Below, one piece after another: positions 2,762-57,579 of a DNA stretch of 64,000 bases. The stretch spans positions 7,516 through 71,515 of the forward strand of contig MFNK01000009.1 in the NCBI GenBank assembly GCA_001782045.1, read 5' to 3'. The position numbers and the translations under genes were made by a program. The notes under the pieces are model-generated. The model was not told the origin of the DNA and did no database searches. It was given only the letters and a program-made list of their open reading frames with translations. How positions within the stretch are numbered: the first letter of the stretch is position 1; every line of letters begins with the position of its first letter. This DNA is from Candidatus Levybacteria bacterium RIFCSPHIGHO2_01_FULL_36_15b. Lineage in GTDB: Bacteria; Patescibacteriota; Microgenomatia; Levybacterales; UBA12049.

Positions 2762-4206
2762 ATTCTTGGAAATAGAGCATCACCCGATTTAATTTCCGCT
2801 TTAGAAAATTGTTTTTGTATTTTATCGGAGGTTTCCGGCAAGAAAGGAGACAAAAGTGCTGCAATTTCATATATTTGATCAACAGAGTGTGCAAGAAGAG
2901 AATTTAAATCCTTGCCCTTATGATTCGAGGAAACTTTTAGAAGCTCCCATGGTTTCTCATCGTTTATAAATTTGTCGAGCTTTGAGATTTTATTCCAAAT
3001 TAAAGCAAGAGCCTCGTTAAATCTAAATTCTTCAAGTAATTTTTTATAGTCACCGTAAATATCAATCAAATGAATTGCACGAGGAGATGCAAATTGTTTA
3101 AATGCTGCATTTTCACATAACTTACTTACTCTTGATACTAAATTTCCAAGTCCATTTGCAAGGTCACTGTTATAAACCTTTTCAAGTTTTTCAACAGAAA
3201 AATCACCGTCCGAAAAAGGTGAATTTTCGGAAAGCAGATAGTATCTCAAAGAATCCACACCATATTTATTTATTATTTCAATTGGATCAATAACATTTCC
3301 TATTGTTTTTGACATTTTTTGACCATTTACCGTAAAGTAACCATGAACAAATAGGGCATTAGGAAGTGCAAGTCCTGCAGACAATAAGAATGCAGGCCAG
3401 TAAATAGCATGGAATCTAATTATTCCTTTTCCTATAACGTGTAAATCCGCAGGCCACCATTTCTTATATTCTTGCTCGTTTGAATTAAAACCTATTCCTG
3501 ATTGATAAATATTGAGTGCATCAAACCAAACGTACATACGCTGATTATCATCGTCTGGTACCGGAACTCCCCAGTTTTTAGCACGTTTGTTGCTTCTTGA
3601 AATACTAATGTCTTTTAAACCTTCTTTTAAAAAACCCAAAACTTCGTTTTTTCTATATTGGGGATATATTTTAAGCTTGTCGGAATCTATTAGGTCTTTA
3701 ATTTGTTTTTCGTACTTTGAAAGTTTAAAAAAATAGTTTGTTTCGCTTACTTCTTCCAATGGTTTCCCAGGGTGCTCGAAGCACTGTCCGTTTTCATCAA
3801 GTTCTGATTTTTCATAAAAAAGTTCACACCCGACACAATAAAGCCCGGTATATTCCTTTTTATAAATATCATGCTGGCATAATTCCCAAAGTTTCTGCGA
3901 TGCCTGGTGATGCACCCTAGAGCTTCCTCTTTGAAATACATCAAATTCAATATTTAATGCTTTTGCTAAATCTTCAAACTCTTTTGAGTGAGTATCTAAA
4001 AATTTCTGAACCTCTACGCCTTCTTTTTCAGCTGCCTGAACATTTTTAATTGCATTTTCATCCGCACCCGATAAAAGTAAAACTTCTTCTCCTAAGCTTT
4101 TTCTAAATCTTTTTATCACATCCGCCTGCACAAATTCCAAAGCATGGCCTACATGAGGCTTTGCATTCACGTACGGAATAGCTGTAGTTAAATAATATTT
4201 GTTCAT
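2758..4206 (-). CDS. metG: methionine--tRNA ligase (short form, 482 aa)
   Basis: Class I aaRS with HIGH motif (PHVGHALE) and KMSKS (QKMSKTIGN). MetRS-type N-terminus AIPYVNAKPHVGH. Confidence 0.9.
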   Translation of the reverse strand: MNKYYLTTAIPYVNAKPHVGHALEFVQADVIKRFRKSLGEEVLLLSGADENAIKNVQAAEKEGVEVQKFLDTHSKEFEDLAKALNIEFDVFQRGSSRVHHQASQKLWELCQHDIYKKEYTGLYCVGCELFYEKSELDENGQCFEHPGKPLEEVSETNYFFKLSKYEKQIKDLIDSDKLKIYPQYRKNEVLGFLKEGLKDISISRSNKRAKNWGVPVPDDDNQRMYVWFDALNIYQSGIGFNSNEQEYKKWWPADLHVIGKGIIRFHAIYWPAFLLSAGLALPNALFVHGYFTVNGQKMSKTIGNVIDPIEIINKYGVDSLRYYLLSENSPFSDGDFSVEKLEKVYNSDLANGLGNLVSRVSKLCENAAFKQFASPRAIHLIDIYGDYKKLLEEFRFNEALALIWNKISKLDKFINDEKPWELLKVSSNHKGKDLNSLLAHSVDQIYEIAALLSPFLPETSDKIQKQFSKAEIKSGDALFPRI

Positions 4207-4597: not shown

Positions 4598-4765
4598 ATG
4601 AATTTAGAATCGGAATTCAGTATCTCTAAGTCAAACAGAAGACGCGTTCAGGAAAAAGTAGAAAATCCTCAACACCCGTTTAAAATAATAGTACACGAAA
4701 GAACAAGAAAAAAGCTTGAAAAACGCGCCCACATCCTAGAAAGAAAAGCAGTAAAAAGAAAGTAA
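4598..4765 (+). CDS. hypothetical small highly basic protein (55 aa)
   Basis: ATG at 4598 directly after a gaTATAAT -10 box. Very K/R-rich (SKSNRRRVQEK...RKKLEKRAHILERKAVKRK). Not in the ORF track (<60 aa). Confidence 0.3.
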   Translation: MNLESEFSISKSNRRRVQEKVENPQHPFKIIVHERTRKKLEKRAHILERKAVKRK

Positions 4766-4804
4766 CCTAATAAATTTGCAATTTACTGCTATAATAGTCC
4801 GATT

Positions 4805-5134
4805 ATGAGCGAAAGGTTCAAAAAACCATTGCCTGAACATGCAGGATTGCGCAGTAAAATAGTTGGAACTCTTCAGAAAGTGGATCAAGCAAAGTCAAAG
4901 ATTTGGCAGACAGACGCTGCTTATAATTATTTGCCTACAAGTTCACAGCAAATTGTAGACGATATGGTTGAAGGAACTACTGATGGAATTAAGGCAGCAA
5001 ACGACATGGAATGGGTTTTGGCAGCAAACGAAGAGGGACTGGATCCAGACACAATTGTTAGAATGTGGGAAAGAATTGAACAAAAACCTGTTAAAGAACT
5101 CTCTACAGATTTATACTCTTCAAGAATTCATTAA
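4805..5134 (+). CDS. hypothetical protein
   Basis: 109 aa, preceded by an extended -10 (tgcTATAAT). No recognisable domain. Confidence 0.45.
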   Translation: MSERFKKPLPEHAGLRSKIVGTLQKVDQAKSKIWQTDAAYNYLPTSSQQIVDDMVEGTTDGIKAANDMEWVLAANEEGLDPDTIVRMWERIEQKPVKELSTDLYSSRIH

Positions 5135-34153: not shown

Positions 34154-36430
34154 TTAGTTATTTTGCACATTTATTTCTATGTTGTTTGGATTTTTGGGCA
34201 ATCCAGAATTTAAAAACGGGATTGAGGGATTAAATAAAGTTTCAACTTTTTCAACATTTTGTAAATTATTTAAATAGTTTTGTGCTTTTTGCAAATCCTG
34301 TCCCTGTATTTGTGTTTTAATTTCGTTCAAATCAAGTTTTGGTAATACTTTAACATTTATTGCAAGTTCCGCTACGGTATCTCTGTTCTTTTCTACAGTC
34401 AGTTTTTTTACATCTGTTTTTATAGCGCTTTTTAAAATATTTACTTCTGCACTGTCAAATAGCATCTCTACAAGACTTATCATATCGCTGTTTTCATAAG
34501 CTATGTAATTAAAAGCGACTGTTGCGTTAAGTGTGAGCTTATTAGACTCATCCCCTTCTTTTTTATCGAATTTTTCATCCGATAAATCGGTATCTACAAA
34601 TTGCGGGAGAATAGTTTTTCCTTTTTCTATCTTTCCTGCAATGGCCTCTTTTGCCTTATCCTCAAGTGCCTTAGGAAGGGCAGCTCTTGCTTTTGCCATG
34701 TCATCTTTAGAAACTACATTCACGTTTTTCTTTGTTCCTCCGGAGAATGCGTTGTCATTTTTTGCTCCTATTGCTTTATTGCTTCCAATTGTAAACTTGG
34801 TGTCAGAAGGAAGATTATATTCCGTTCCTATTTTTTCTGCTGTTACTTCTACATTTGCAGTTCCAGGTTTTGTTCCGGAAAAAACATCACCTGATGCGGA
34901 TGCAATTGATATTGTTTTGTCCAGCGTAAACTTAAGTCCATTCGATGAAGTTATTACGGTTCCTTCGTTAAGCTTAATAGGGTCAGTGTCGTTATTAAAA
35001 ACCGTTACCGTTCCTTTTGCGTTTGTTCCCACGTCTTTTTTGCCGACTACATCGATGGTTGTCGATCCGCTTTCCTCAATCGGAACAATGGTTGCTTCAA
35101 TTATATTTTCATCAAGCTTTGTGGAAGAGTTAGGAGAAAAAGTAACTTCAGCGTTTTTAGTTTGTGTTATTGTTTTAACCGTTATGTTAACTTTTGCTTT
35201 TGCCTGAAATAGAAAAATAAAATAAAACAAAATTACTCCAAGAATTACAACACCCGCAATTAGCAGCATCTTTTTATCTCTAATGTTTAAATTTCTTAAA
35301 GAGTCTTTTGCAACTAAGGATCTTGCCTTAGTAAAAGACGTTTTTGCTTTTTCTATAAGCAATACTCCTAAAGCTCCTAAGTTAGATTTTTTTTCTTCTC
35401 TTATTTTTACATCCTCTGGAATTTCTTCACTTACTTCATTCAGATTTTCACTTGGAACACTGTCTTTAGGTTTTTCATATCTTGGTTTATTTTTGGCAAC
35501 GTCGGCATTGCTAAAGCCAAAAAAATCCATAGATCCTTCTTGTCCTACATAATCCAAATCGCCGGTTTCTTTATCTTCCGCTTTAATTTCTTCTGCCACT
35601 TCATTCTTGCTAACATTTTCTTCCTCGCCTTCTTCTCTTTTTTCCATAACAATTTGATTTTCATCAAACTGCAGAGTTGCACCCATTTGAGTAGCAGCAC
35701 CTAAAAGTACAGCTTTTACATCGGCATTAGCAGGTAGCATCATAATTTGGGGAATATGCAAAAAGTTTAAACTCTTACTCCACTGATGATTTAGAAATTC
35801 CTGAGTTAATTCATCTTCGTCTGAATTTAATAAAATTACTCTTGCAGGCATAACCGCAGGTGTTTCTAAGTGTTTAAGAAGTGTATCTACTGTAAAAGAA
35901 GCACCTTCGTGAATTTCGGTTGTTCTTGCCTCCATGATTTTTCCGCTTTTTATGTAATATACGGTTAAATATTTTTTTCCAATTTCGGCAAGTATTGCTG
36001 TTACTGGGGCGCCTTCTTCTTTTTGTAAAAGATTTGTTACGCTTTCGCTAAATGTTAGAAAACCAATTGGATCAAGGGATAATTCTTCTCCTACCTTTTT
36101 TAATTTATCTAAATATTCTTTTTTAATTTTATCAGCCTCTATCCAGTTATCTTTTAAGGCAAGAATTGTTTTATATTTATCAGGAGAAGTGCCTAGGGAA
36201 GTTTCAGCGCCAGATACTGCTTTATCTAATACATTTAAGAATTCCTCAAGCGATGCATCCTCAATTGTATTTGTAAATTCTTCCTCGGATGAACTAATGT
36301 ACTTTAGGTTGCTCCCAGTCTTTTCAAAAATAACGGCCTTTGCCTTCTCGTTTCTTAAAATAAGAGAGAGGTAATATTCTTTATCCTCTTTTTTGCCAAC
36401 GTTGAGCAGATTAGAAATGTTCATATTCAA
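34154..36430 (-). CDS. large bitopic membrane protein: ~390-aa cytoplasmic N-domain (possible FtsA/PilM-like actin fold), one TM, ~340-aa extracytoplasmic beta-rich C-domain
   Basis: TM LLIAGVVILGVILFYFIFLF. N-domain resembles the PilM/FtsA SHS2 pattern only loosely. Stop/start junction with sortase (34153/34154). Confidence 0.45.
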   Translation of the reverse strand: MNMNISNLLNVGKKEDKEYYLSLILRNEKAKAVIFEKTGSNLKYISSSEEEFTNTIEDASLEEFLNVLDKAVSGAETSLGTSPDKYKTILALKDNWIEADKIKKEYLDKLKKVGEELSLDPIGFLTFSESVTNLLQKEEGAPVTAILAEIGKKYLTVYYIKSGKIMEARTTEIHEGASFTVDTLLKHLETPAVMPARVILLNSDEDELTQEFLNHQWSKSLNFLHIPQIMMLPANADVKAVLLGAATQMGATLQFDENQIVMEKREEGEEENVSKNEVAEEIKAEDKETGDLDYVGQEGSMDFFGFSNADVAKNKPRYEKPKDSVPSENLNEVSEEIPEDVKIREEKKSNLGALGVLLIEKAKTSFTKARSLVAKDSLRNLNIRDKKMLLIAGVVILGVILFYFIFLFQAKAKVNITVKTITQTKNAEVTFSPNSSTKLDENIIEATIVPIEESGSTTIDVVGKKDVGTNAKGTVTVFNNDTDPIKLNEGTVITSSNGLKFTLDKTISIASASGDVFSGTKPGTANVEVTAEKIGTEYNLPSDTKFTIGSNKAIGAKNDNAFSGGTKKNVNVVSKDDMAKARAALPKALEDKAKEAIAGKIEKGKTILPQFVDTDLSDEKFDKKEGDESNKLTLNATVAFNYIAYENSDMISLVEMLFDSAEVNILKSAIKTDVKKLTVEKNRDTVAELAINVKVLPKLDLNEIKTQIQGQDLQKAQNYLNNLQNVEKVETLFNPSIPFLNSGLPKNPNNIEINVQNN

Positions 36431-38175
36431 GTAACTTTAGCGTATATTCTTTTTTGTCCCCGGCCTAAATTCTCCTGCTTTATTATTGTAAAACTCTTTA
36501 TCTTGCCTGTAAAGTCGACATGAGGTCCGCCGCAGAACTCTTTAGAATAGTCTCCTATAAAATAAACTTTTACATCTCCTTCGTATTTTTCATCAAAAAG
36601 TCCCATTGCTTTGATTCCTTTAGCTTTTTCGATTGGAAGCATCTCAAAATGTACAGGTAGATTTTCTTTTATTTTGCTAGTTACAATTTCTTCAATCTTT
36701 TTTATTTCATCATCCGTTAAATTTCTATCAAAATTAAAATCAAATCTAACCCTTTCACTTGTAATATTGCTTCCCGTCTGGTGAAGATCTGTTCCAAACA
36801 TATCTCGAAGTGCCTGATGCAAAAGATGAGTTGCGGTATGCCCTTTAATTGTTAACTCAGAGTGGTCTGCAAGTCCTCCTTTAAACATTCCCGCTCCTGC
36901 GGTTTTGGATTTTTTACTATGCTCTTGCATTAAATCCGCAAACTTTTGTTCGTCAAAAATGTAACCAAGACTTTTTATTTGAGTCGGGGAAAGTCCGTGG
37001 GTTGAATACATTTTAAAAGCCTCATCAGCATTAATTTCTTTAGTTCCATTTTCCTCTGCTCCTCCAATTATTTTCTCTGCATCTTTGATAACTTTTTTGT
37101 AAGCTTGCTGTTCTTGTAAAATTACATTTTTAATCTCTTCAAAGTTTTGGCTCAAAGTTTTATCTGTTTTGGCACACTCTGCAACAATTGCACTTATTAT
37201 GTTTTCAACATCTGCTTGTCCCAGGTTATCAAAACTTCTTCGAAGTAATCTTCTTAAAATATATCCGCGTTCTTTATTAGATGGGAAAACGCCTGCATCA
37301 ATTAAATAAACAGCAGCTCGCAGGTGGTCAGCAATTATTCTTACTGCTTTTTGGTTCTTCACATAATCTAAATCTGCTTCTCTTTCTATTGCTTTTACAA
37401 TTGGGGAAAAAAGGGAAGTCTGGAAAATATCAGACTTTTGCTCAACTGCTGCCAGTAGCCTTTCCAGTCCTCCTCCAAAATCAACATTTTTATTTGGTAG
37501 TTCTTTAAAGCCTTTATCTGTTTTTTGATATTGCATAAAGACGCTGTTTGCAATTTCCAAAAACTTCCCGCATTCGCATTCTACAGGATTATCTTTGCAC
37601 TCCTTCTTGTGTTCTATGTCATCAAACCTAAAGTACACTTCTGTGTCAGGTCCGCCAATTTCGCCAACAGGCATATTTTTTGGAACTCCGCTTCTTGACC
37701 ACCAGTTTTTATCAACTCCTGCAAAAGATATTTTTTGCGCCGGTACTATTTTTTTCCACAATTCAAAAGACTCTGTATCTTTTTCAATTTCATCCTCACC
37801 ACCAAAAACTGTAATAAAAAGCTTATCCTCCGGTAAGCTCAACTCAACGGTTAAAAATTCCCAAAGCCAGGGAATTTCTTCTTTTTTAAAATAATCTCCC
37901 AAACTCCAATTACCAAGCATTCTAAAAAATGTCGTGTGGCGGTTGTCTCCGACTTCGTCTATATCAACAGCCCTAAAAGAATTTTGTACGTTTACTAATC
38001 TTTTGCCTTGAGGATGCGCTTCTCCTAAGAGATAAGGAATTAAAGGCTGCATACCGGACGATGTAAAAAGGGTAGTCGGGTCATCAATTGGAACAAGTGG
38101 AGAATTAATAATTTGCTTATGGTCTCTTTTTTCAAAAAATGAAATGTAAGTATCAATAAGAAGTCTTGCGTTCAT
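36427..38175 (-). CDS. alaS: alanine--tRNA ligase, short form (catalytic + editing domains, no C-Ala domain, 582 aa)
   Basis: Class II AlaRS motifs (TLFTSSGMQ, RHTTFFRMLGNWSLGDYFK), editing HxxxH (HTATHLLHQAL) and CGGPHV. Confidence 0.8.
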   Translation of the reverse strand: MNARLLIDTYISFFEKRDHKQIINSPLVPIDDPTTLFTSSGMQPLIPYLLGEAHPQGKRLVNVQNSFRAVDIDEVGDNRHTTFFRMLGNWSLGDYFKKEEIPWLWEFLTVELSLPEDKLFITVFGGEDEIEKDTESFELWKKIVPAQKISFAGVDKNWWSRSGVPKNMPVGEIGGPDTEVYFRFDDIEHKKECKDNPVECECGKFLEIANSVFMQYQKTDKGFKELPNKNVDFGGGLERLLAAVEQKSDIFQTSLFSPIVKAIEREADLDYVKNQKAVRIIADHLRAAVYLIDAGVFPSNKERGYILRRLLRRSFDNLGQADVENIISAIVAECAKTDKTLSQNFEEIKNVILQEQQAYKKVIKDAEKIIGGAEENGTKEINADEAFKMYSTHGLSPTQIKSLGYIFDEQKFADLMQEHSKKSKTAGAGMFKGGLADHSELTIKGHTATHLLHQALRDMFGTDLHQTGSNITSERVRFDFNFDRNLTDDEIKKIEEIVTSKIKENLPVHFEMLPIEKAKGIKAMGLFDEKYEGDVKVYFIGDYSKEFCGGPHVDFTGKIKSFTIIKQENLGRGQKRIYAKVT

Positions 38176-50276: not shown

Positions 50277-52376
50277 ATGGCTGAAGATAGATTAAAAACA
50301 TTAGATAAGGTAAGAAATATTGGCATTATTGCCCATATTGACGCGGGAAAAACAACAACCACAGAAAGAATTCTTTTTTACACCGGAAAAACCTACAAAA
50401 TTGGAGATATCGACGAGGGAAATACCCAAATGGACTGGATGGAACAGGAAAAAGAAAGAGGAATTACCATAGTTTCCGCTGCAACAACAGCTTTTTGGAA
50501 AGATTACAGAATAAATATTATTGATACTCCCGGACACGTTGATTTTACTGCAGAAGTAGAGAGATCTTTAAGGGTTTTGGATGGCGGAATTACAGTTTTG
50601 GATGCAGAAGAAGGAGTTCAATCCCAATCAGAAACCGTTTGGAGACAGGCTGATAAGTATAAAGTGCCAAGGCTATGTTTTGTGAATAAAATGGATAAAT
50701 TAGGAGCCGATTTTTTAGCAACTATAAAATCGATTGAAGACAGACTTGGTGCTAACCCGCTTATTATGGTTTTGCCAATTGGGGTTGAAAGTAGTTTTAC
50801 AGGAATAGTCCATTTGATGGAACAAAAAGCATACATTTGGAAAAATGACAACCTCGGCGCGGAATTTGAAGTTACAGATGTGCCGGAAGATATGAAGGCT
50901 CAGGTGCAAGAATATAGGCACAAATTAGTTGAAAAAATTGCAGAAACCGATGATGCTCTAACTGATAAATATTTGCACGGACAGGAAATTTCAGACGATG
51001 AATTAAAAGCGGCTTTGCGGCGTGCAGTTATTGCTTATAAATTAGTTCCGATATTTGCAGGAAGTTCGCTGCGTAACAAAGGCGTCCAGCCATTACTTGA
51101 TGCAGTTGTAGATTATCTGCCTTCTCCTTTGGATGTTGGAGAAATTATCGGAATTAATCCCAAAACTGGTGAGGAAGTAAAAAGAACTCCTCAAGCAGAC
51201 CAGCCTTTAGCAGGTCTTGCCTTTAAAATTCAAATTGACCCACACGTCGGAAAACTTACTTATTTTAGAGTTTATAGCGGCAAAGTAGCTGCCGGTTCCT
51301 ATATTTATAACAGTTCCAAAAATGAAAATGAAAGAATTGGAAGAATTTTATTAATGCATGCAAATCACAGAGAAGAAATTAAAGAAGCATATGCAGGAGA
51401 AATTGTTGCATTAGTTGGGCTTAAGGATACTATTACCGGAGACACTTTATCAGATGAAAAAGAACCAATAGTTCTGGAAAAAATTTCCTTCCCCGAGCCT
51501 GTTATATCACTTGCAATTGAGCCAAAAACAAAAGCAGATCAGGAAAAATTAGGCCTTGCTCTAAAAAGATTGTCAGAGGAAGATCCGACTTTTTCAATTA
51601 AAACAAATCATGAAACAGGGCAGACTATAATTTCCGGAATGGGAGAGCTGCAGCTTGAAGTTATGGTAGACAGAATGAAGCGGGAATTCGGAGTTTTGGC
51701 AAATGTCGGAGCGCCCCAAGTAGCATATAAAGAAACAATAAAGCAAACTGCAGAGGGAGAAGGAAAGTATATAAGGCAATCCGGAGGAAGAGGACAATAC
51801 GGCCATTGTTTCTTACGGGTTGAACCAAAACCAAGAGGCGAAGGGTACGAGTTTATAAATGCAATAAAAGGAGGAGCAATTCCTTCTGAATTTATAATTT
51901 CAATCCAAAAAGGTGTAAAAGAAACTATGGAAAACGGAATTTTGTTAGGATATCCGCTTGTTGATATGAATGTAACTGTTTATGATGGAAGTTTCCACGA
52001 GGTAGATTCATCCGACGTCGCATTTAAAATTGCAGCTTCACAAGCACTTCAAGCTGCTACACGAAAAGCACAGCTTTCGCTTTTAGAGCCTATTATGAAG
52101 GTTGAAGTAACAACGCCGAGCGAGTTTATGGGAGATGTAATTGGAGATTTGTCATCTAAAAGAGGTCAAATATTAGGAACAGAAGAAAAGGGAAAAGCGA
52201 CAATTATTAACGCTATGGTACCGCTCGCCGAGCTTTCAAAATATGAAACGACTCTTCGATCTATGTCTCAGGGAAGAGCCCACTCATATCTTGAGCCAAG
52301 CCATTACGAAGAAGTACCCAAAAATATAGTTGAAGCAATGCTTGCCAAATCCACATTCACCGGAAGAGTTGAATAG
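50277..52376 (+). CDS. fusA: elongation factor G
   Basis: G domain [20 protein letters not shown]; domains II-V. 699 aa. Confidence 0.95.
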
Positions 52377-53160
52377 GTAAAGAGGGATAATTTCCGCGTC
52401 TCCAAAAACTGCTCGTAAAGTATTTTTTAAGTTTATCCAGGACAGGATTAGAATGAGAAGGTTCTTCTTCAATCGTAAGTTGAGTAAAACTTGATGGTCG
52501 AATCCACGGCCAAATTTGAATTTGACCTTCTCTTTGTGCAATAACTGTTTCCTCTGGTGTCATTCCTTGTGCTTGCCATACTAATCTTTCCAGTTGAGGA
52601 TGCCAACTTTCCCATAAAATTTGATCTTTTGTTTTTTCTTTTAGATCTTGTTCACCACCATTTATTAGCATTTTATTATGTCTCGTAAGATAACTTGAGA
52701 GTTTTAATTCTTTTTCAGCAAGAGGTAGGCTGTTCCATCCATCTAATGCGGCCTTTTTAACCCAAGAACCATTTATTTGTCCATCCTGTTCTTCTTGTTT
52801 AGCTATCTCTTCGCTTAGCATTCTATTTCTAATTTTCTGTTTGCCGTGTTTCAATTGTAGACTGCTCGATTTTACCTCACCTTCAGCTTCGCTTAAAGGA
52901 AAGCCTTCAACGAACTTTATTATAAAATCACTACCTTTTGCATATCGTTCTTTCAGAATTACTTCTGCAACAATATCTGTTTGGGATGCTATTATCTTTT
53001 GTGTTCTTATTTCTGTTATATCTCCTCTTTCGTTCCAGAGATCATGAAGAAAAGCTCCATTATCTTTTTGCTGTTCTTTAATTTTTCTTCTCGTGAGACG
53101 CACAGGGATCTCAAAATGAGGCGCGGATATTTGATCTAATTCGGATGGTGCAATTCCCAT
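52357..53160 (-). CDS. hypothetical protein (Q/E/W/R-rich), antisense-oriented insertion between fusA and tuf
   Basis: 267 aa, no recognised domain. 3' end overlaps the fusA stop by 20 nt (convergent). Confidence 0.45.
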
Positions 53161-53206
53161 CTGATTTAATTGTGGTAGTTCAAAAAATATTTGTCAAGAA
53201 GATTAT

Positions 53207-53785
53207 TTGTTTTGGTATACTAAATATGTGGTAAAAATAAAATCCTTCAGGTATAAAAATCTTCTTGGGGCTTTTTTGGGAATTCTTATCGCGCTTCTTC
53301 TGTCTCGCTTTGAGCCTTTTCACTTATTTCTTCTAAACTTACATGAATTAGGTTACTTAGGTGCCTTTATTGCCGGAGCGCTTTTTGTTTCTACTTTCAC
53401 GGTTGCAACAGGGGCTGTAATACTTCTTGTTTTAGCTGAAAGTCTTTCGCCCGTAGAGTTGGCCCTAATAGGTGGTTTAGGCTCGGTTCTTGGAGATTTT
53501 TTTATTTTCAAGTTTATCAAAAACTCGCTCTCGATTGAAATTACTGAAATTTATAATCACTTTGGGGGTAACCATCTTTCAAAAATCCTACACACAAAAT
53601 ATTTTAGTTGGACTTTGCCGGTAATTGGCGCGATTATTATCGCTTCTCCATTTCCCGATGAATTAGGAGTAAGTTTACTAGGGATATCCAGAATGAAGAC
53701 GTATCAATTCTTAATTCTCGCATTTATTTTAGATTTTTTAGGCATATTTCTCATAGTAAGTGCGTCAGCTTTAATAAAACCTTAA
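53207..53785 (+). CDS. hypothetical polytopic membrane protein
   Basis: ~192 aa, 5-6 TM helices. Start ambiguous (TTG 53207 or GTG 53228). Confidence 0.4.
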   Translation: MFWYTKYVVKIKSFRYKNLLGAFLGILIALLLSRFEPFHLFLLNLHELGYLGAFIAGALFVSTFTVATGAVILLVLAESLSPVELALIGGLGSVLGDFFIFKFIKNSLSIEITEIYNHFGGNHLSKILHTKYFSWTLPVIGAIIIASPFPDELGVSLLGISRMKTYQFLILAFILDFLGIFLIVSASALIKP

Positions 53786-55053: not shown

Positions 55054-55071
55054 CCTGCCTGCGCAGGCAGG
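55054..55071 (+). repeat. 18-bp perfect GC-rich palindrome CCTGCCTGCGCAGGCAGG just downstream of tuf (terminator-like but without a clean U-tract)
   Basis: Arms 55054-55062 and 55063-55071. Strongly GC-rich in an AT-rich genome. Confidence 0.5.
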
Positions 55072-55101: not shown

Positions 55102-55410
55102 ATGCCAAAAGGAAGAATTAGAGTAAAACTCAAAAGTTACGACGCGAGAGTAATAGACTCTACATGTCAGCAAATTTTAGACACGGCAATTAGAACCGGG
55201 GCTAAAGTTGTTGGGCCAATTCCACTTCCCAGCAAAAGATCGGTATATGCGGTAAATAAATCAACTTTTATAGACAAAAACGCACGAGACCACTTTCAAA
55301 TAAAAATCCACAAAAGACTCATAGATATAATCTCACCCACAGAAAAAACAATTGACAGTCTTACGCATTTAGAATTACCTGCTGGAGTGAATATTGAGAT
55401 AAGGATGTAG
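55102..55410 (+). CDS. rpsJ: 30S ribosomal protein S10
   Basis: 102 aa. S10 signature (RIRVKLKSYD..LD.S...I..TA...GAKVVGPIPLP). Confidence 0.9.
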   Translation: MPKGRIRVKLKSYDARVIDSTCQQILDTAIRTGAKVVGPIPLPSKRSVYAVNKSTFIDKNARDHFQIKIHKRLIDIISPTEKTIDSLTHLELPAGVNIEIRM

Positions 55411-55422
55411 TATAATTCGTTT

Positions 55423-55830
55423 ATGGATACACCAGCAAATCCAAATCAACCTCCACAAGATCCCTTTAACTTAGCCCGACAGATATCTACTGATCCCGCA
55501 GTTCCAGACGAGCAGAAATTGGAAATGTTAACGGAAATTGGCAGAGGTGTTGGCGTTGATGTAGATAGAATAAATAGATTGCAACGTGTTCCAATTATAC
55601 AACGTGCGGAAATAATAGCAGGACATATTGCTCGACATGGAGAAACTGTTAGGCAGATTACCGATTTTCAAACGGAAGCAAAAAGTCAATTACGCGAAGC
55701 AGATTCACAGCTGGCTAAATCGACGGCGGAAATAGCAGCTAGACTGGATGAGCTAAGAAGATTCCATGAGCCAAGAATAGCAGAAGCAGACATAGCCGTA
55801 CGCCGTCCCAAAAACACCCCTGAAAAATAA
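55423..55830 (+). CDS. hypothetical protein (alpha-helical; Pro-rich N-terminus PANPNQPPQDP), inserted directly after rpsJ
   Basis: 135 aa. Higher GC and R/Q/D-rich composition unlike neighbours. Preceded by tagTATAAT. Confidence 0.45.
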   Translation: MDTPANPNQPPQDPFNLARQISTDPAVPDEQKLEMLTEIGRGVGVDVDRINRLQRVPIIQRAEIIAGHIARHGETVRQITDFQTEAKSQLREADSQLAKSTAEIAARLDELRRFHEPRIAEADIAVRRPKNTPEK

Positions 55831-55863
55831 CCTGCAGGCGTAAACATCGAAATCAGGATGTAG
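55831..55863 (+). pseudogene. orphan duplicate of the rpsJ 3' end (10 codons + stop, PAGVNIEIRM*), synonymously recoded
   Basis: cct gca ggc gta aac atc gaa atc agg atg tag versus the rpsJ end cct gct gga gtg aat att gag ata agg atg tag (55378-55410). Seven differences, all third-position synonymous. Identical aggatgtag core. Confidence 0.6.
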
Positions 55864-55865
55864 AA

Positions 55866-55893
55866 TTGACTTGTATCTCTTTAATGCTATAAT
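55866..55893 (+). promoter_or_regulatory. candidate sigma-70 promoter TTGACT-N16-TATAAT
   Basis: -35 at 55866-55871, -10 at 55888-55893, upstream of the second inserted ORF. Confidence 0.45.
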
Positions 55894-56006
55894 TTCTATA
55901 TGGAACCTGTTGATAGTCAAGAAATCGCTGCTAATTCTCTAGAGCAAAGCATTATTCTCCAGACCACGTTTTTAAAAGAGAAGAGCTTCAGAACGAATCA
56001 GAAAGC

Positions 56007-56432
56007 TTGTTCTCTAGTTTTCTAGATGTATTTAAGCAAGACCCTGATGTTCTAGAAGCCACAGCAGATTCCTTCTTTGATTATGGTGGGTCTCACGATT
56101 TTATAGAAATACCTAAAAGTAATTCTGAATATGAAATATCTACAGCTGATGATCCATATAATGGGGCTGTATATAGATTAGATATTGTTAGAAGAGAGGG
56201 AGAGGTTGAAGAACATCTAATTCTTAAAAGCGCACCCGAGAGGTTTAGAGGAAGCACCATAGTTATGGAAGGAGTGGGGTTTATATATCAATACCGAAAT
56301 GAGGAGACGCAAGGGTATCGTCCATACTCAAATTCACCAATAGCTTTGGATGCTGCTCGAACTCTTTTAGAAAAAACAAAAAGAGATTTTCAAGATGCAC
56401 CCCAACCAAATCCGGCCAATCCTCAGACTTAA
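56007..56432 (+). CDS. hypothetical protein (TTG start; C-terminus ends in the Pro-rich APQPNPANPQT)
   Basis: 141 aa, no recognised domain. Atypical composition (R/E/Y/G). Weak SD. Confidence 0.4.
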   Translation: MFSSFLDVFKQDPDVLEATADSFFDYGGSHDFIEIPKSNSEYEISTADDPYNGAVYRLDIVRREGEVEEHLILKSAPERFRGSTIVMEGVGFIYQYRNEETQGYRPYSNSPIALDAARTLLEKTKRDFQDAPQPNPANPQT

Positions 56433-56601
56433 ACGCTCCCATTAAGAATCCACAGGTTAAAATTCAAACGCGAAAACCTATCAGCCTCCTCTTGCAATTG
56501 ACCTCATCAATATATATAATTACAAGTACAAAATGGCTAAAACACAGGAGGTGATGTTAGCTACATAGGAGTAAATTCGCTACTTTTTTTGTAAGTAAAA
56601 G

Positions 56602-56630
56602 CGGCTCTATGTGGCCGCCTTTTTGTTGTT
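56602..56630 (+). terminator. terminator/attenuator-like hairpin (GCGGC-n8-GCCGC + T-rich run) 10 nt upstream of the rplC SD
   Basis: Stem 56602-56606 / 56615-56619, then ctttttgttgttt. Preceded by a candidate promoter TTGCAA-N16-TATAAT (56493-56520) and an 11-codon mini-ORF (MAKTQEVMLAT). Confidence 0.4.
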
Positions 56631-56640
56631 TAGGAGAATT

Positions 56641-57579
56641 ATGCAAATTTTATCTTTAGTAGGAAGAAAAGTCAGTCAAAAACAAGGATTTTTGCAGAAC
56701 GGTAAAAGAGTTCCGTTAACTGCAGTAAATGTGATGGGTAACATGGTAACTCAGCTTAAGACAGCCGACAAAGAAGGCTACACTGCAATTCAGCTAGGTA
56801 TGGATATTAAGAAAAAACCAGGCAAAAGAGACCTGAATAGAGCAAAACAAGCGGGGCTAGAAAAAGCACCCCGCTTTTTTACAGAAATAAGAGTGGATGA
56901 TCTTGAAGGTGCAACCCTAGGCGCAGAATTAAAATTTGAGGAAGTTTTCGTTCCCGGAGATATTGTTGACGTAACAGGAACTTCAAAAGGAAAAGGATTT
57001 GCAGGAGGAGTAAAAAGACACGGATTCCACGGAGGACCTAGAACCCATGGACAATCAGACAGGGAAAGAGCGCCCGGCTCAATTGGTCAAACAACAACAC
57101 CAGGAAGAGTTTATAAAGGTAAAAAAATGGCAGGAAGAATGGGAACAGATACGGTAACTGTTAAAAATTTAGAAATTATAGAAGTAACTGCAGACGGAGT
57201 TTTACTAATAAAAGGATTAGTTCCCGGACATTTAAACGGATATGTAACAATTAAAAAAGTTGGAGAAAATAAAAAATTTGAACCGTTATATAAGGAAGAA
57301 GTAAAAGAACCAATTTCAGAAAGCACCAGTGAAAGTTCAGAAAATCAGACAAGCGGAACCGACCTGTCGCATTCTTCGGATGACGCTCAGGCTGTTCAAC
57401 CTGAACAACAAAACCTAGAGTCACCTTCGCTAAATAACAGCTCGGCAACTGACTCTGAAGATATTAAAGTTAATACTGAGCCGGCTGTCAGTTCACCTCA
57501 GAATGAACAGGTCGATACCACTCCAAAGAAAAATAAAGAAGAAATTAAAGAGGAGGTAGCTGAAGATGCCAAGAGCTAA
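56641..57579 (+). CDS. rplC: 50S ribosomal protein L3 with ~100-aa Ser/Glu-rich C-terminal extension
   Basis: ATG 56641 after SD aggaga (the ORF track's 56611 start is over-extended). L3 core then a low-complexity acidic tail. Confidence 0.9.
   Translation: MQILSLVGRKVSQKQGFLQNGKRVPLTAVNVMGNMVTQLKTADKEGYTAIQLGMDIKKKPGKRDLNRAKQAGLEKAPRFFTEIRVDDLEGATLGAELKFEEVFVPGDIVDVTGTSKGKGFAGGVKRHGFHGGPRTHGQSDRERAPGSIGQTTTPGRVYKGKKMAGRMGTDTVTVKNLEIIEVTADGVLLIKGLVPGHLNGYVTIKKVGENKKFEPLYKEEVKEPISESTSESSENQTSGTDLSHSSDDAQAVQPEQQNLESPSLNNSSATDSEDIKVNTEPAVSSPQNEQVDTTPKKNKEEIKEEVAEDAKS

Follow-up and report, generated by a model that had tools for sequence, protein, structure and literature searches.

Why does the end of a ribosomal protein gene recur outside the gene, 453 nt downstream? 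We examined this question in a 64,000 nt stretch, referred to here as the window, of the genome of a Candidatus Levybacteria bacterium (Microgenomates, candidate phyla radiation, CPR). The gene is rpsJ (55102..55410, + strand), which encodes ribosomal protein S10 (102 aa; Pfam Ribosomal_S10, E = 1.8e-31), and a 135-aa open reading frame (ORF), ORF135 (55423..55830, + strand), lies between the two copies of its 3' end. A preliminary description of the locus had taken this arrangement as the mark of an integrating element that replaced the end of rpsJ. Comparison with related genomes indicates that the working end of rpsJ is foreign and that the downstream copy is the lineage's own former end. 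We consider it likely that the repeat is the footprint of displacement of the rpsJ 3' end by recombination with DNA of another Levybacteria lineage.

The repeat consists of the last 33 nt of rpsJ (copy 1, 55378-55410) and a second copy (copy 2, 55831-55863, + strand) that begins one base past the TAA stop codon of ORF135 and is in frame with it. The two are identical at 26 of 33 positions. Between a shared first codon (cct) and a shared end (agg atg tag), each codon differs once, at repeat positions 6, 9, 12, 15, 18, 21 and 24 (copy 1/copy 2: gct/gca, gga/ggc, gtg/gta, aat/aac, att/atc, gag/gaa, ata/atc). All seven differences fall at third codon positions, and PAGVNIEIRM* is read from both copies. 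The coordinates and sequences given in the preliminary description proved exact on re-reading, and a count by codon position confirmed its statement that the 7/33 differences are all synonymous third-position changes. A repeat finder extended the similarity to 41 nt at 78% identity (55373-55413 and 55826-55866).

The 26/33 match is not due to chance. In 94 related loci, the 739,629 control positions yielded a single match to the rpsJ end of the locus itself that reached at least 22/33, and rpsJ is the only one of the 141 ORF ends in the window that has such a downstream copy. The probability that seven random substitutions all fall at third positions is P = 8e-5, and a fully synonymous outcome was obtained in 0/200,000 simulations. 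Independent assemblies from several samples show an identical arrangement across the region, and it is therefore not an assembly artefact. The second copy had been described as lying outside any ORF. This holds for the + strand of the window ORF list; on the opposite strand, two short ORFs overlap it (55686-55847 and 55753-55920), which we judged to be spurious from their size and position. The predicted RNA fold of copy 2 is not significant (z = −0.19), and copy 2 has no match in Rfam at E <= 1.

Which copy belongs to the lineage can be read from the ancestry of rpsJ itself. We retrieved rpsJ neighbourhoods from 80 related species, the loci of which are labelled here with L-numbers. All compared rpsJ genes are 309 nt long with no insertions or deletions, which allowed site-by-site comparison, and 66 loci were ranked. 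Over gene nt 1-180 the closest loci are L016 (157/180), L021 (156/180) and L017 (156/180), ranks 1-3 of 66, and nt 1-178 (55102..55279, + strand) make up a native-like 5' part. Over the last 57 nt (gene nt 253-309; 55354..55410, + strand, a segment that includes copy 1) L016, L021 and L017 are found at ranks 56, 52 and 55 of 66, and the best matches are L006 and L044, at 48/57, with L006 at rank 2. Third-codon-position identity in this clearly foreign segment is 0.16 to L017, 0.11 to L016, 0.26 to L021 and 0.68 to L006. A max-chi-square mosaic test with 55 informative sites gave a permutation p of 0.0004 and placed the best breakpoint at nt 178-183. A run of 13 consecutive donor-type informative sites spans nt 255-297 and so starts 22 nt upstream of the repeat. 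The zone 55280..55355 (+ strand) would therefore hold the left, homologous crossover, and the rpsJ of the window is chimeric.

Copy 2 is best matched by the working rpsJ ends of L017 (30/33), L016 (28/33) and L021 (28/33), the same three loci that are closest to the 5' part of the gene. Since the nearest relatives of the 5' part are also the best matches of the downstream copy, we read copy 2 as a displaced native end, a relic, and the working end as foreign. The genome background to the right is also L017-like, as the first 215 residues of ribosomal protein L3 are 73% identical to L017 and 55% to L006. Against the working end of L017, the relic shows 0 changes at its 22 first and second codon positions, and we infer that it has lacked a coding role for only a small fraction of the period after the window and L017 lineages split. 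The proposals that the two copies derive from S10 coding ends of different lineages, and that the host's end was displaced by replacement, are thus upheld: each copy has its own nearest relatives, the differences are synonymous, and the upstream working copy is the one that would have arrived with ORF135.

The divergence of ORF135 follows that of the foreign rpsJ end. Between the window and L006, third-position identity is 0.55 in tuf and 0.53 in rpsJ nt 1-180, as compared to 0.70 in rpsJ nt 181-309 and 0.71 in ORF135. The ORF135 protein is 79% identical between the two, against 55% for L3, 56% for L4 and 47% for L23. The 3' part of rpsJ and ORF135 appear to share a more recent ancestor with the L006 lineage than does the rest of the genome, which indicates that they were transferred between lineages as a segment composed of a new gene end and a linked gene, less diverged from the donor lineage than the background. 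The preliminary description had allowed for a two-copy arrangement fixed among relatives. The closest relatives (L015-L018 and L020) have no ORF135, and their junction holds other genes, such as def and an Asp/Glu racemase gene.

ORF135 has few homologues. An exhaustive search found nine proteins at E <= 0.001, with identities of 79% in the L006 species, 70% in L014 and 49% in L096, together with a handful of distant relatives. At the DNA level the identity to L006 is 82%, distributed over the three codon positions as 0.84/0.91/0.71, the pattern of a coding gene. Wherever a homologue above 45% identity has a readable context (window, L006 and L096), it stands directly after an rpsJ end with the common junction ATGTAG-TATAAT-N6-ATG. 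The L014 contig starts 73 nt before the ORF135 homologue, with no rpsJ in view, and rplC follows. A check on whether homologues of the 135-aa protein lie beside rpsJ ends therefore had a mixed outcome, positive for these three loci and negative for the distant homologue P0006 (37% identity; L105 2167-2917), which follows the gene for a 97-aa GIY-YIG protein, has a TATAAT-N7-ATG start and has no flanking repeats. Because of this different context, we rejected the idea that the ORF135 family is bound to rpsJ.

The AlphaFold model of ORF135 (predicted local distance difference test score, pLDDT, 86.6) has a small helical head and a 70-residue helix, and the protein is predicted to be all-helical. 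The model matched no fold in the PDB at E <= 0.001, and the sequence had no significant match in Pfam, NCBIfam or PHROGs. PADLOC returned one marginal match, to a family of unknown function (E = 0.0087), and neither Pfam nor PADLOC gave a significant toxin, immunity or defence match. A phage origin was rejected, as no relatives were found in IMG/VR viral contigs.

Relics of rpsJ ends recur in related genomes. In L006 a GC-rich spacer of 52 nt lies behind the true end, and a relic, ORF135 and another relic come next. The spacer (3904-3955) bears a hairpin and contains …cgcttgcaggcgagc…. The window and L006 agree in the spacing of the repeats (453 nt) and in the register of the relic behind the ORF135 stop codon. 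The order in L034 is rpsJ, an unrelated ORF of 176 aa, then a relic that is 24/33 identical and has lost its stop codon, and behind it a promoter-like site and the next gene of the cargo. In L039 a partial relic of 17 nt lies 3 nt past the stop codon. No trailing relic is found behind the ORF135 homologues of L096 and L014. Arrays of orphan ends are thus present, with two relics beside the true end in L006 and one each in L034 and L039, and in three stacked cases the newest arrival adjoins rpsJ and older material lies further downstream. Four relics start within gene nt ~272-283. The relic of the window and the trailing relic of L006 are identical at 22/33 positions. Strains of the L006 species vary in their relics (ATGTAG/ATACAG, AATTTT/AACATT) but not in ORF135, a difference that suggests the relics are neutral, unconstrained remnants. 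A scan with 78 distinct true ends rose above background only in the window, in L006 (two copies) and in L034. Two further 20/27 hits, one of them within ORF135, were rejected as being at chance level, and a position weight matrix scan was too strict and missed the L034 relic. No convincing similarity extends past about 38 nt in any case, and a relic reaching further upstream was rejected. These comparisons indicate that the displacement process recurs, independently and with unrelated cargo in L034.

The relic in the window appears to lie in its original context. A strong promoter-like site, TTGACT-16-TGcTATAAT (55866..55893, + strand; 11/12 consensus matches and a TG extension), begins 3 nt past the relic, and the junction between the two reads GAAATCAGGATGTAGAATTGACTTG. 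Promoter-like hexamers, read by eye, stand right after the rpsJ stop codon in the relatives L034, L015, L020 and L021, that is, at the same place, and this supports the view that the relic still occupies its old position. Downstream of the site lie two orphan cargo ORFs (55900..56432, + strand). The strong promoter and a leaderless-type ATG belong to ORF41 (55900-56025); ORF141 (56007-56432), which overlaps it in a different frame, carries no signals and has a TTG as its only start. A frameshift has possibly split a single gene into these two. Outside this species ORF141 has no homologue, and it has no family match in Pfam, NCBIfam or PHROGs and no significant match in PADLOC.

The local order is thus tuf, rpsJ, ORF135, the rpsJ-end copy, the promoter-like site, ORF41/ORF141, a promoter, an upstream ORF (uORF), a terminator and rplC (56641..57579, + strand), the conserved right-hand flank, which encodes L3 (Pfam Ribosomal_L3). 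The interval between rpsJ and rplC measures 1,230 nt, since it also contains the orphan region and the rplC leader; the figure of about 450 nt given previously applies to the repeat-flanked unit, which is 453 bp long and, as stated there, encodes one gene only, ORF135.

In this clade the junction of S10 and L3 forms a hypervariable slot for cargo, with its left edge at the rpsJ stop codon and its right edge at the promoter of the rplC leader. Among 71 related species with both genes in view, the gap is at most 250 nt in 31, mostly ~110-230 nt and, in those inspected, mostly leader. In the other 40/71 it ranges from 0.25 to >2 kb and is filled with inserts that are mostly on the same strand and mostly unrelated to each other. 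In Levybacteria and Microgenomates related to them (L015-L094), the slot is seen downstream of the rpsJ stop (about 2809) and ahead of rplC. The expectation that rpsJ and rplC are contiguous in relatives therefore holds for fewer than half of the species, and the junction, which had been placed among the most conserved operon junctions of bacteria, is not so in this clade. Scanned inserts include peptide deformylase (def), Asp/Glu racemase, Fic, CAP-domain and cation-efflux (CDF transporter) genes and several orphans. Ten large cargo ORFs from related loci were scanned, and no integrase or other recombinase was found among them. The junction is also where several contigs of this species (L004, L005 and L101-L104) break off. 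Contig L004, which comes from a different sample, matches the window exactly from tuf through rpsJ and ORF135 to the end of the relic. With the base that follows the relic TAG (4763-4886, corresponding to window 55864 onward) it turns into unrelated GTGATATAATACTTCTATGATAG... and then ends; its tail reads GTGATATAATACTTCTATGATAGATTTTG. This has the look of a cargo exchange between strains whose boundary coincides with the end of the rpsJ homology.

Such insertions are probably tolerated owing to the promoter and leader of rplC itself, because with an own promoter, uORF and attenuator, as rplC appears to have, insertions upstream need not be polar. The leader (56492..56624, + strand) was delineated with a promoter and terminator scan and comprises a promoter (56492-56520), an 11-codon uORF (56533-56568) and an intrinsic terminator (56601-56618, followed by a run of T). 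All three elements, the promoter-like site among them, are conserved over the clade (18 loci) both in sequence and in position, and compensatory changes are seen in the terminator helix. Equivalent leaders lie at 4450-4583 in L006, 2920-3054 in L096 and 3660-3796 in L016, among others. The uORF encodes MAKTQEVMLAT*, contains GGAGGTGAT and, in the 18 loci, stays in frame where indels of 3 nt are present. The loop and 3' strand of the terminator are complementary to the conserved end of the uORF, GCUACAUAG, with 92% of cells paired as against 20-51% when slid. The leader has no match in Rfam. These features suggest a translation-sensing attenuator of the rplC operon.

ORF135 would bring its own expression signal. 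A TATAAT (55411..55416, + strand) directly adjoins the rpsJ stop codon, 6 nt before the ATG of ORF135, with no Shine-Dalgarno (SD) sequence, and is best read as the −10 box of a promoter with a leaderless-type start. In the window, TAWAAT is found 4-9 nt before the ATG in 12/52 long ORFs and an SD-like motif in 8/52. Other leaderless-type examples in the window are at 2517, 4206, 4805, 8487, 17333, 36427-38175 and 49276.

From this footprint we infer the following pathway, beginning with uptake of DNA from a donor in which rpsJ was directly followed by ORF135, an arrangement still present in L096. The donor probably also bore an older rpsJ-end relic behind ORF135, as L006 does. At the left end, the incoming DNA would have paired with the recipient rpsJ and exchanged by an ordinary homologous crossover at about gene nt 180-255. 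At the right end it would have joined the recipient about 33-38 nt before the rpsJ stop codon, either through a short rpsJ-end homology behind ORF135 or through microhomology, that is, by homology-facilitated illegitimate recombination. This right join lies between the ORF135 TAA and CCTGCAGG, where the only shared sequence is AAT(A/T)ACCTGC. The simplest reading is a donor carrying rpsJ, ORF135 and a relic, with the right join made by the donor relic against the recipient rpsJ end; the identical register in L006 suggests that the junction of ORF135 and relic was inherited. The event would have yielded a working chimeric rpsJ that encodes an unchanged C-terminus, an acquired ORF135 with its own −10 box, and a non-coding relic, made up of the native last 33 nt, in front of the original promoter and the resident cargo ORF41/ORF141.

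Site-specific insertion accounts for several of the same facts. ORF135 would be a minimal or decayed integrative element, similar to a cis-mobilizable remnant, with the rpsJ 3' end as its attachment (att) site and the two copies as attL and attR, inserted by a tyrosine or serine recombinase encoded elsewhere or by the host Xer system. Direct repeats of 33-41 nt that reproduce the exact end of a ribosomal gene do resemble the traces left by ICEs (integrative and conjugative elements) in rplL, rpsI and rpmG (PMC4701971). The unit measures 453 nt in the window and in L006, some strains of the L006 species have flanking repeats identical over 27 nt, and the 5' boundaries of the relics cluster at gene nt ~272-283 in four cases. 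The position of the foreign tract tells against this explanation: it begins inside rpsJ, at gene nt ~180-255, and extends at least 22 nt upstream of the repeat, which strand exchange inside an att site could not produce. The polarity of the copies is also the opposite of that expected, since the only perfectly shared block is the 3' aggatgtag, which had been put forward as the crossover site, and a crossover there would make copy 2 the foreign one and copy 1 the native one. Insertion of a 453-bp circle by the Campbell route was rejected on similar grounds, as it needs a crossover within the 33-nt repeat and donor-type sites start at nt 255. The earlier remark that the window holds no integrase was borne out (0/10 integrase-sized ORFs is a recombinase, and ORF135 has no recombinase domain), and none was found in the scanned junction cargo ORFs. 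The slot cargo is a heterogeneous set of ordinary and orphan genes with no common module, ORF135 was not found in viral contigs, and inspection by eye revealed no convincing resemblance of the repeat to Xer/dif-like or attC-like sites. We regard a site-specific element as unlikely, and the preliminary interpretation is in this sense partly supported: replacement of the 3' end stands and the integrating element does not.

Vertical inheritance and duplication in place fare worse. If the order rpsJ, ORF135, relic had been present in the common ancestor of the window and L006 and had been lost elsewhere, with the relic kept for a function such as upstream promoter DNA, several observations would fit: ORF135 after an rpsJ end in the window, L006 and L096 and before rplC in L014, down to 49% identity; the same ATGTAG-TATAAT-N6-ATG junction wherever it is readable; a relic in the same register behind ORF135 in the window and L006; and a strong promoter 3 nt past the relic. 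Such descent explains neither the different nearest relatives of the 5' and 3' parts of rpsJ nor the lower divergence from L006 of ORF135 and the rpsJ 3' part than of tuf and the rpsJ 5' part. The relic of the window matches the working end of L017 at 30/33 positions and the trailing relic of L006 at only 22/33, the L006 relics are polymorphic and decaying, and the ORF135 homologues of L096 and L014 have no trailing relic; we consider this history very improbable. Least probable of all is a duplication of the rpsJ end in situ, through slippage or a long target-site duplication by an unknown inserting enzyme, followed by divergence. A short sequence on both sides of a cargo gene has the form of a staggered-cut insertion, and the near-identical L006 repeats would fit it. 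Copies made from one template start out identical, however, and the dead one would change at all codon positions, yet 7/7 differences are synonymous; the nearest relatives differ between the copies, and the sequence upstream of copy 1 is foreign too.

Several observations weigh against displacement by recombination, the explanation that we prefer. No empty-site allele of this species was found, as every contig with ORF141 also has ORF135, in a search that was limited for ORF41 by its absence from the records as a called gene; the insertion is therefore deduced solely from comparison between species. The true donor lies outside the sample, L006 being only 82% identical in ORF135 DNA, and the informative segments are short (57 and 33 nt). 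The join between ORF135 and the relic is very neat, with the same register in L006 and four relic starts at ~272-283. Random illegitimate joins do not predict such neatness, which requires a single origin of the ORF135-relic junction or a preferred site, and a preferred site would leave some room for a site-specific process. The explanation also leaves the first origin of a cassette flanked by rpsJ ends unaccounted for.

One extension of the displacement pathway, which we put forward as speculative, is that ORF135 and its trailing relic form a recombinase-free, self-targeting cassette that carries both homology arms. The arms would be the rpsJ 3' part on the left and the 33-nt rpsJ-end copy on the right; host RecA could add the cassette at the rpsJ end of related genomes with no deletion, and recombination between the repeats could remove it. 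The rpsJ-rplC slot would then resemble an integrase-less integron in which new leaderless units push older ones downstream. An empty site or deletion product would read as a native-type rpsJ end joined straight to AATTGACTTGTATC, without ORF135, and the junction of a 453-bp circle would read as the ORF135 stop codon, a single rpsJ end and then TATAATTCGTTTATGG.

Three other features of the neighbourhood were observed. The L3 of the window (312 aa in total) has a C-terminal extension of ~100 low-complexity residues rich in Ser, Glu and Gln (57280-57579); L3 is 271 aa long in L006 and 239 aa in L014. Lineages also vary in the fusA-tuf interval (window 52357-53785, L006 1969-2268), which in the window holds two ORFs, of 267 aa (minus strand) and 192 aa (plus strand), neither with precomputed Pfam matches, and in L006 a 99-aa ORF; the interval may be a second variable slot in the str/S10 region. 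In this AT-rich genome, a GC-rich perfect palindrome (cctgcctgc/gcaggcagg, 55054-55071) lies between tuf and rpsJ, the hairpin-bearing spacer of L006 is similar, and related motifs are found near rplC in L039 and L034. Such sequences may represent terminators or small hairpin elements present in repeated copies.

CPR phylogenies are routinely built from the concatenated proteins of a syntenic ribosomal block that includes S10 and L3, and the same block is used for linking contigs. The present locus calls for caution with such markers, as the S10 gene of Levybacteria can be a mosaic of two lineages. It also provides base-level evidence that uncultivated CPR bacteria exchange genes through homologous recombination, and it suggests that an essential ribosomal gene can be the landing anchor for accessory genes. 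A slot rich in orphan genes with their own leaderless-type promoters would be a convenient place in which to search for lineage-specific CPR functions, and the relics left in it give the relative order of acquisitions, the newest adjoining rpsJ.

How does this locus compare with known systems? In streptococci, ICEs whose tyrosine integrases target the 3' end of rplL, rpsI or rpmG are flanked by repeats of 12-54 bp (Ambroset et al. 2016, PMC4701971). As in ICEs, integrative and mobilizable elements (IMEs) and prophages, the repeats here are the exact 3' end of a ribosomal gene, the product is unchanged and the host end is displaced to the far side. These elements typically have a recombinase at one end; none is present in the unit, the window or the scanned cargo, and the unit is 453 bp with one gene and no integrase, excisionase or transfer genes. 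Their crossover lies inside the repeat and leaves the gene upstream host-derived, whereas here the repeats are only 78% identical and the foreign tract runs past the repeat into the gene (third-position identity of nt 253-309 to the three native-like loci 0.11-0.26). Core-gene hotspots and stacked integron cassettes share with this slot a fixed interval that holds different, unrelated genes in each species, with the newest next to rpsJ here. The integron features intI, attI and attC hairpins were not found (no integrase, fold z = −0.19, no Rfam match), and, unlike integron cassettes, each cargo gene has its own promoter.

The right join recalls homology-facilitated illegitimate recombination, which is known from bacteria capable of natural transformation (Prudhomme et al. 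2002; Meier and Wackernagel 2003, as cited in PMC5361080). As that process is represented there, both involve one anchor (here rpsJ), a non-homologous tail (ORF135), a join by short homology or microhomology, and additive integration. The known experimental products usually have recipient DNA deleted at the join, and here 33 nt are duplicated. The join also lies upstream of the end of the anchor homology and may have used a pre-existing rpsJ-end relic of the donor, in a pathway deduced from the footprint.

The closest known process is 3'-end displacement by homology-anchored recombination of the kind seen at rhs genes, where C-terminal displacement is known (Jackson et al. 2009, PMC2935791), and in type VI secretion system (T6SS) effector-immunity arrays, for which displacement through homology-facilitated illegitimate recombination was proposed (Kirchberger et al. 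2017, PMC5361080). In the rhs, cdiA and T6SS systems the new end is a toxin tip with an immunity gene, and the function is changed and selected. The rpsJ locus lacks this feature of polymorphic toxins, different tips with cognate immunity, as both ends encode the same 10 residues of S10 (PAGVNIEIRM*); the essential ribosomal gene is a homology anchor only, the payload is an unrelated small gene, and the relic is only 33 nt long. The likenesses concern the course of events. Incoming DNA shares the conserved upstream part of a gene and brings a new 3' end with a linked gene; the crossover falls inside the gene, which becomes a mosaic; the old end is pushed downstream and kept as an orphan fragment; no dedicated recombinase takes part; and repeated events stack orphan ends, as in L006. 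We conclude that the locus adds a new case to a known process and does not represent a novel type of mobile element.

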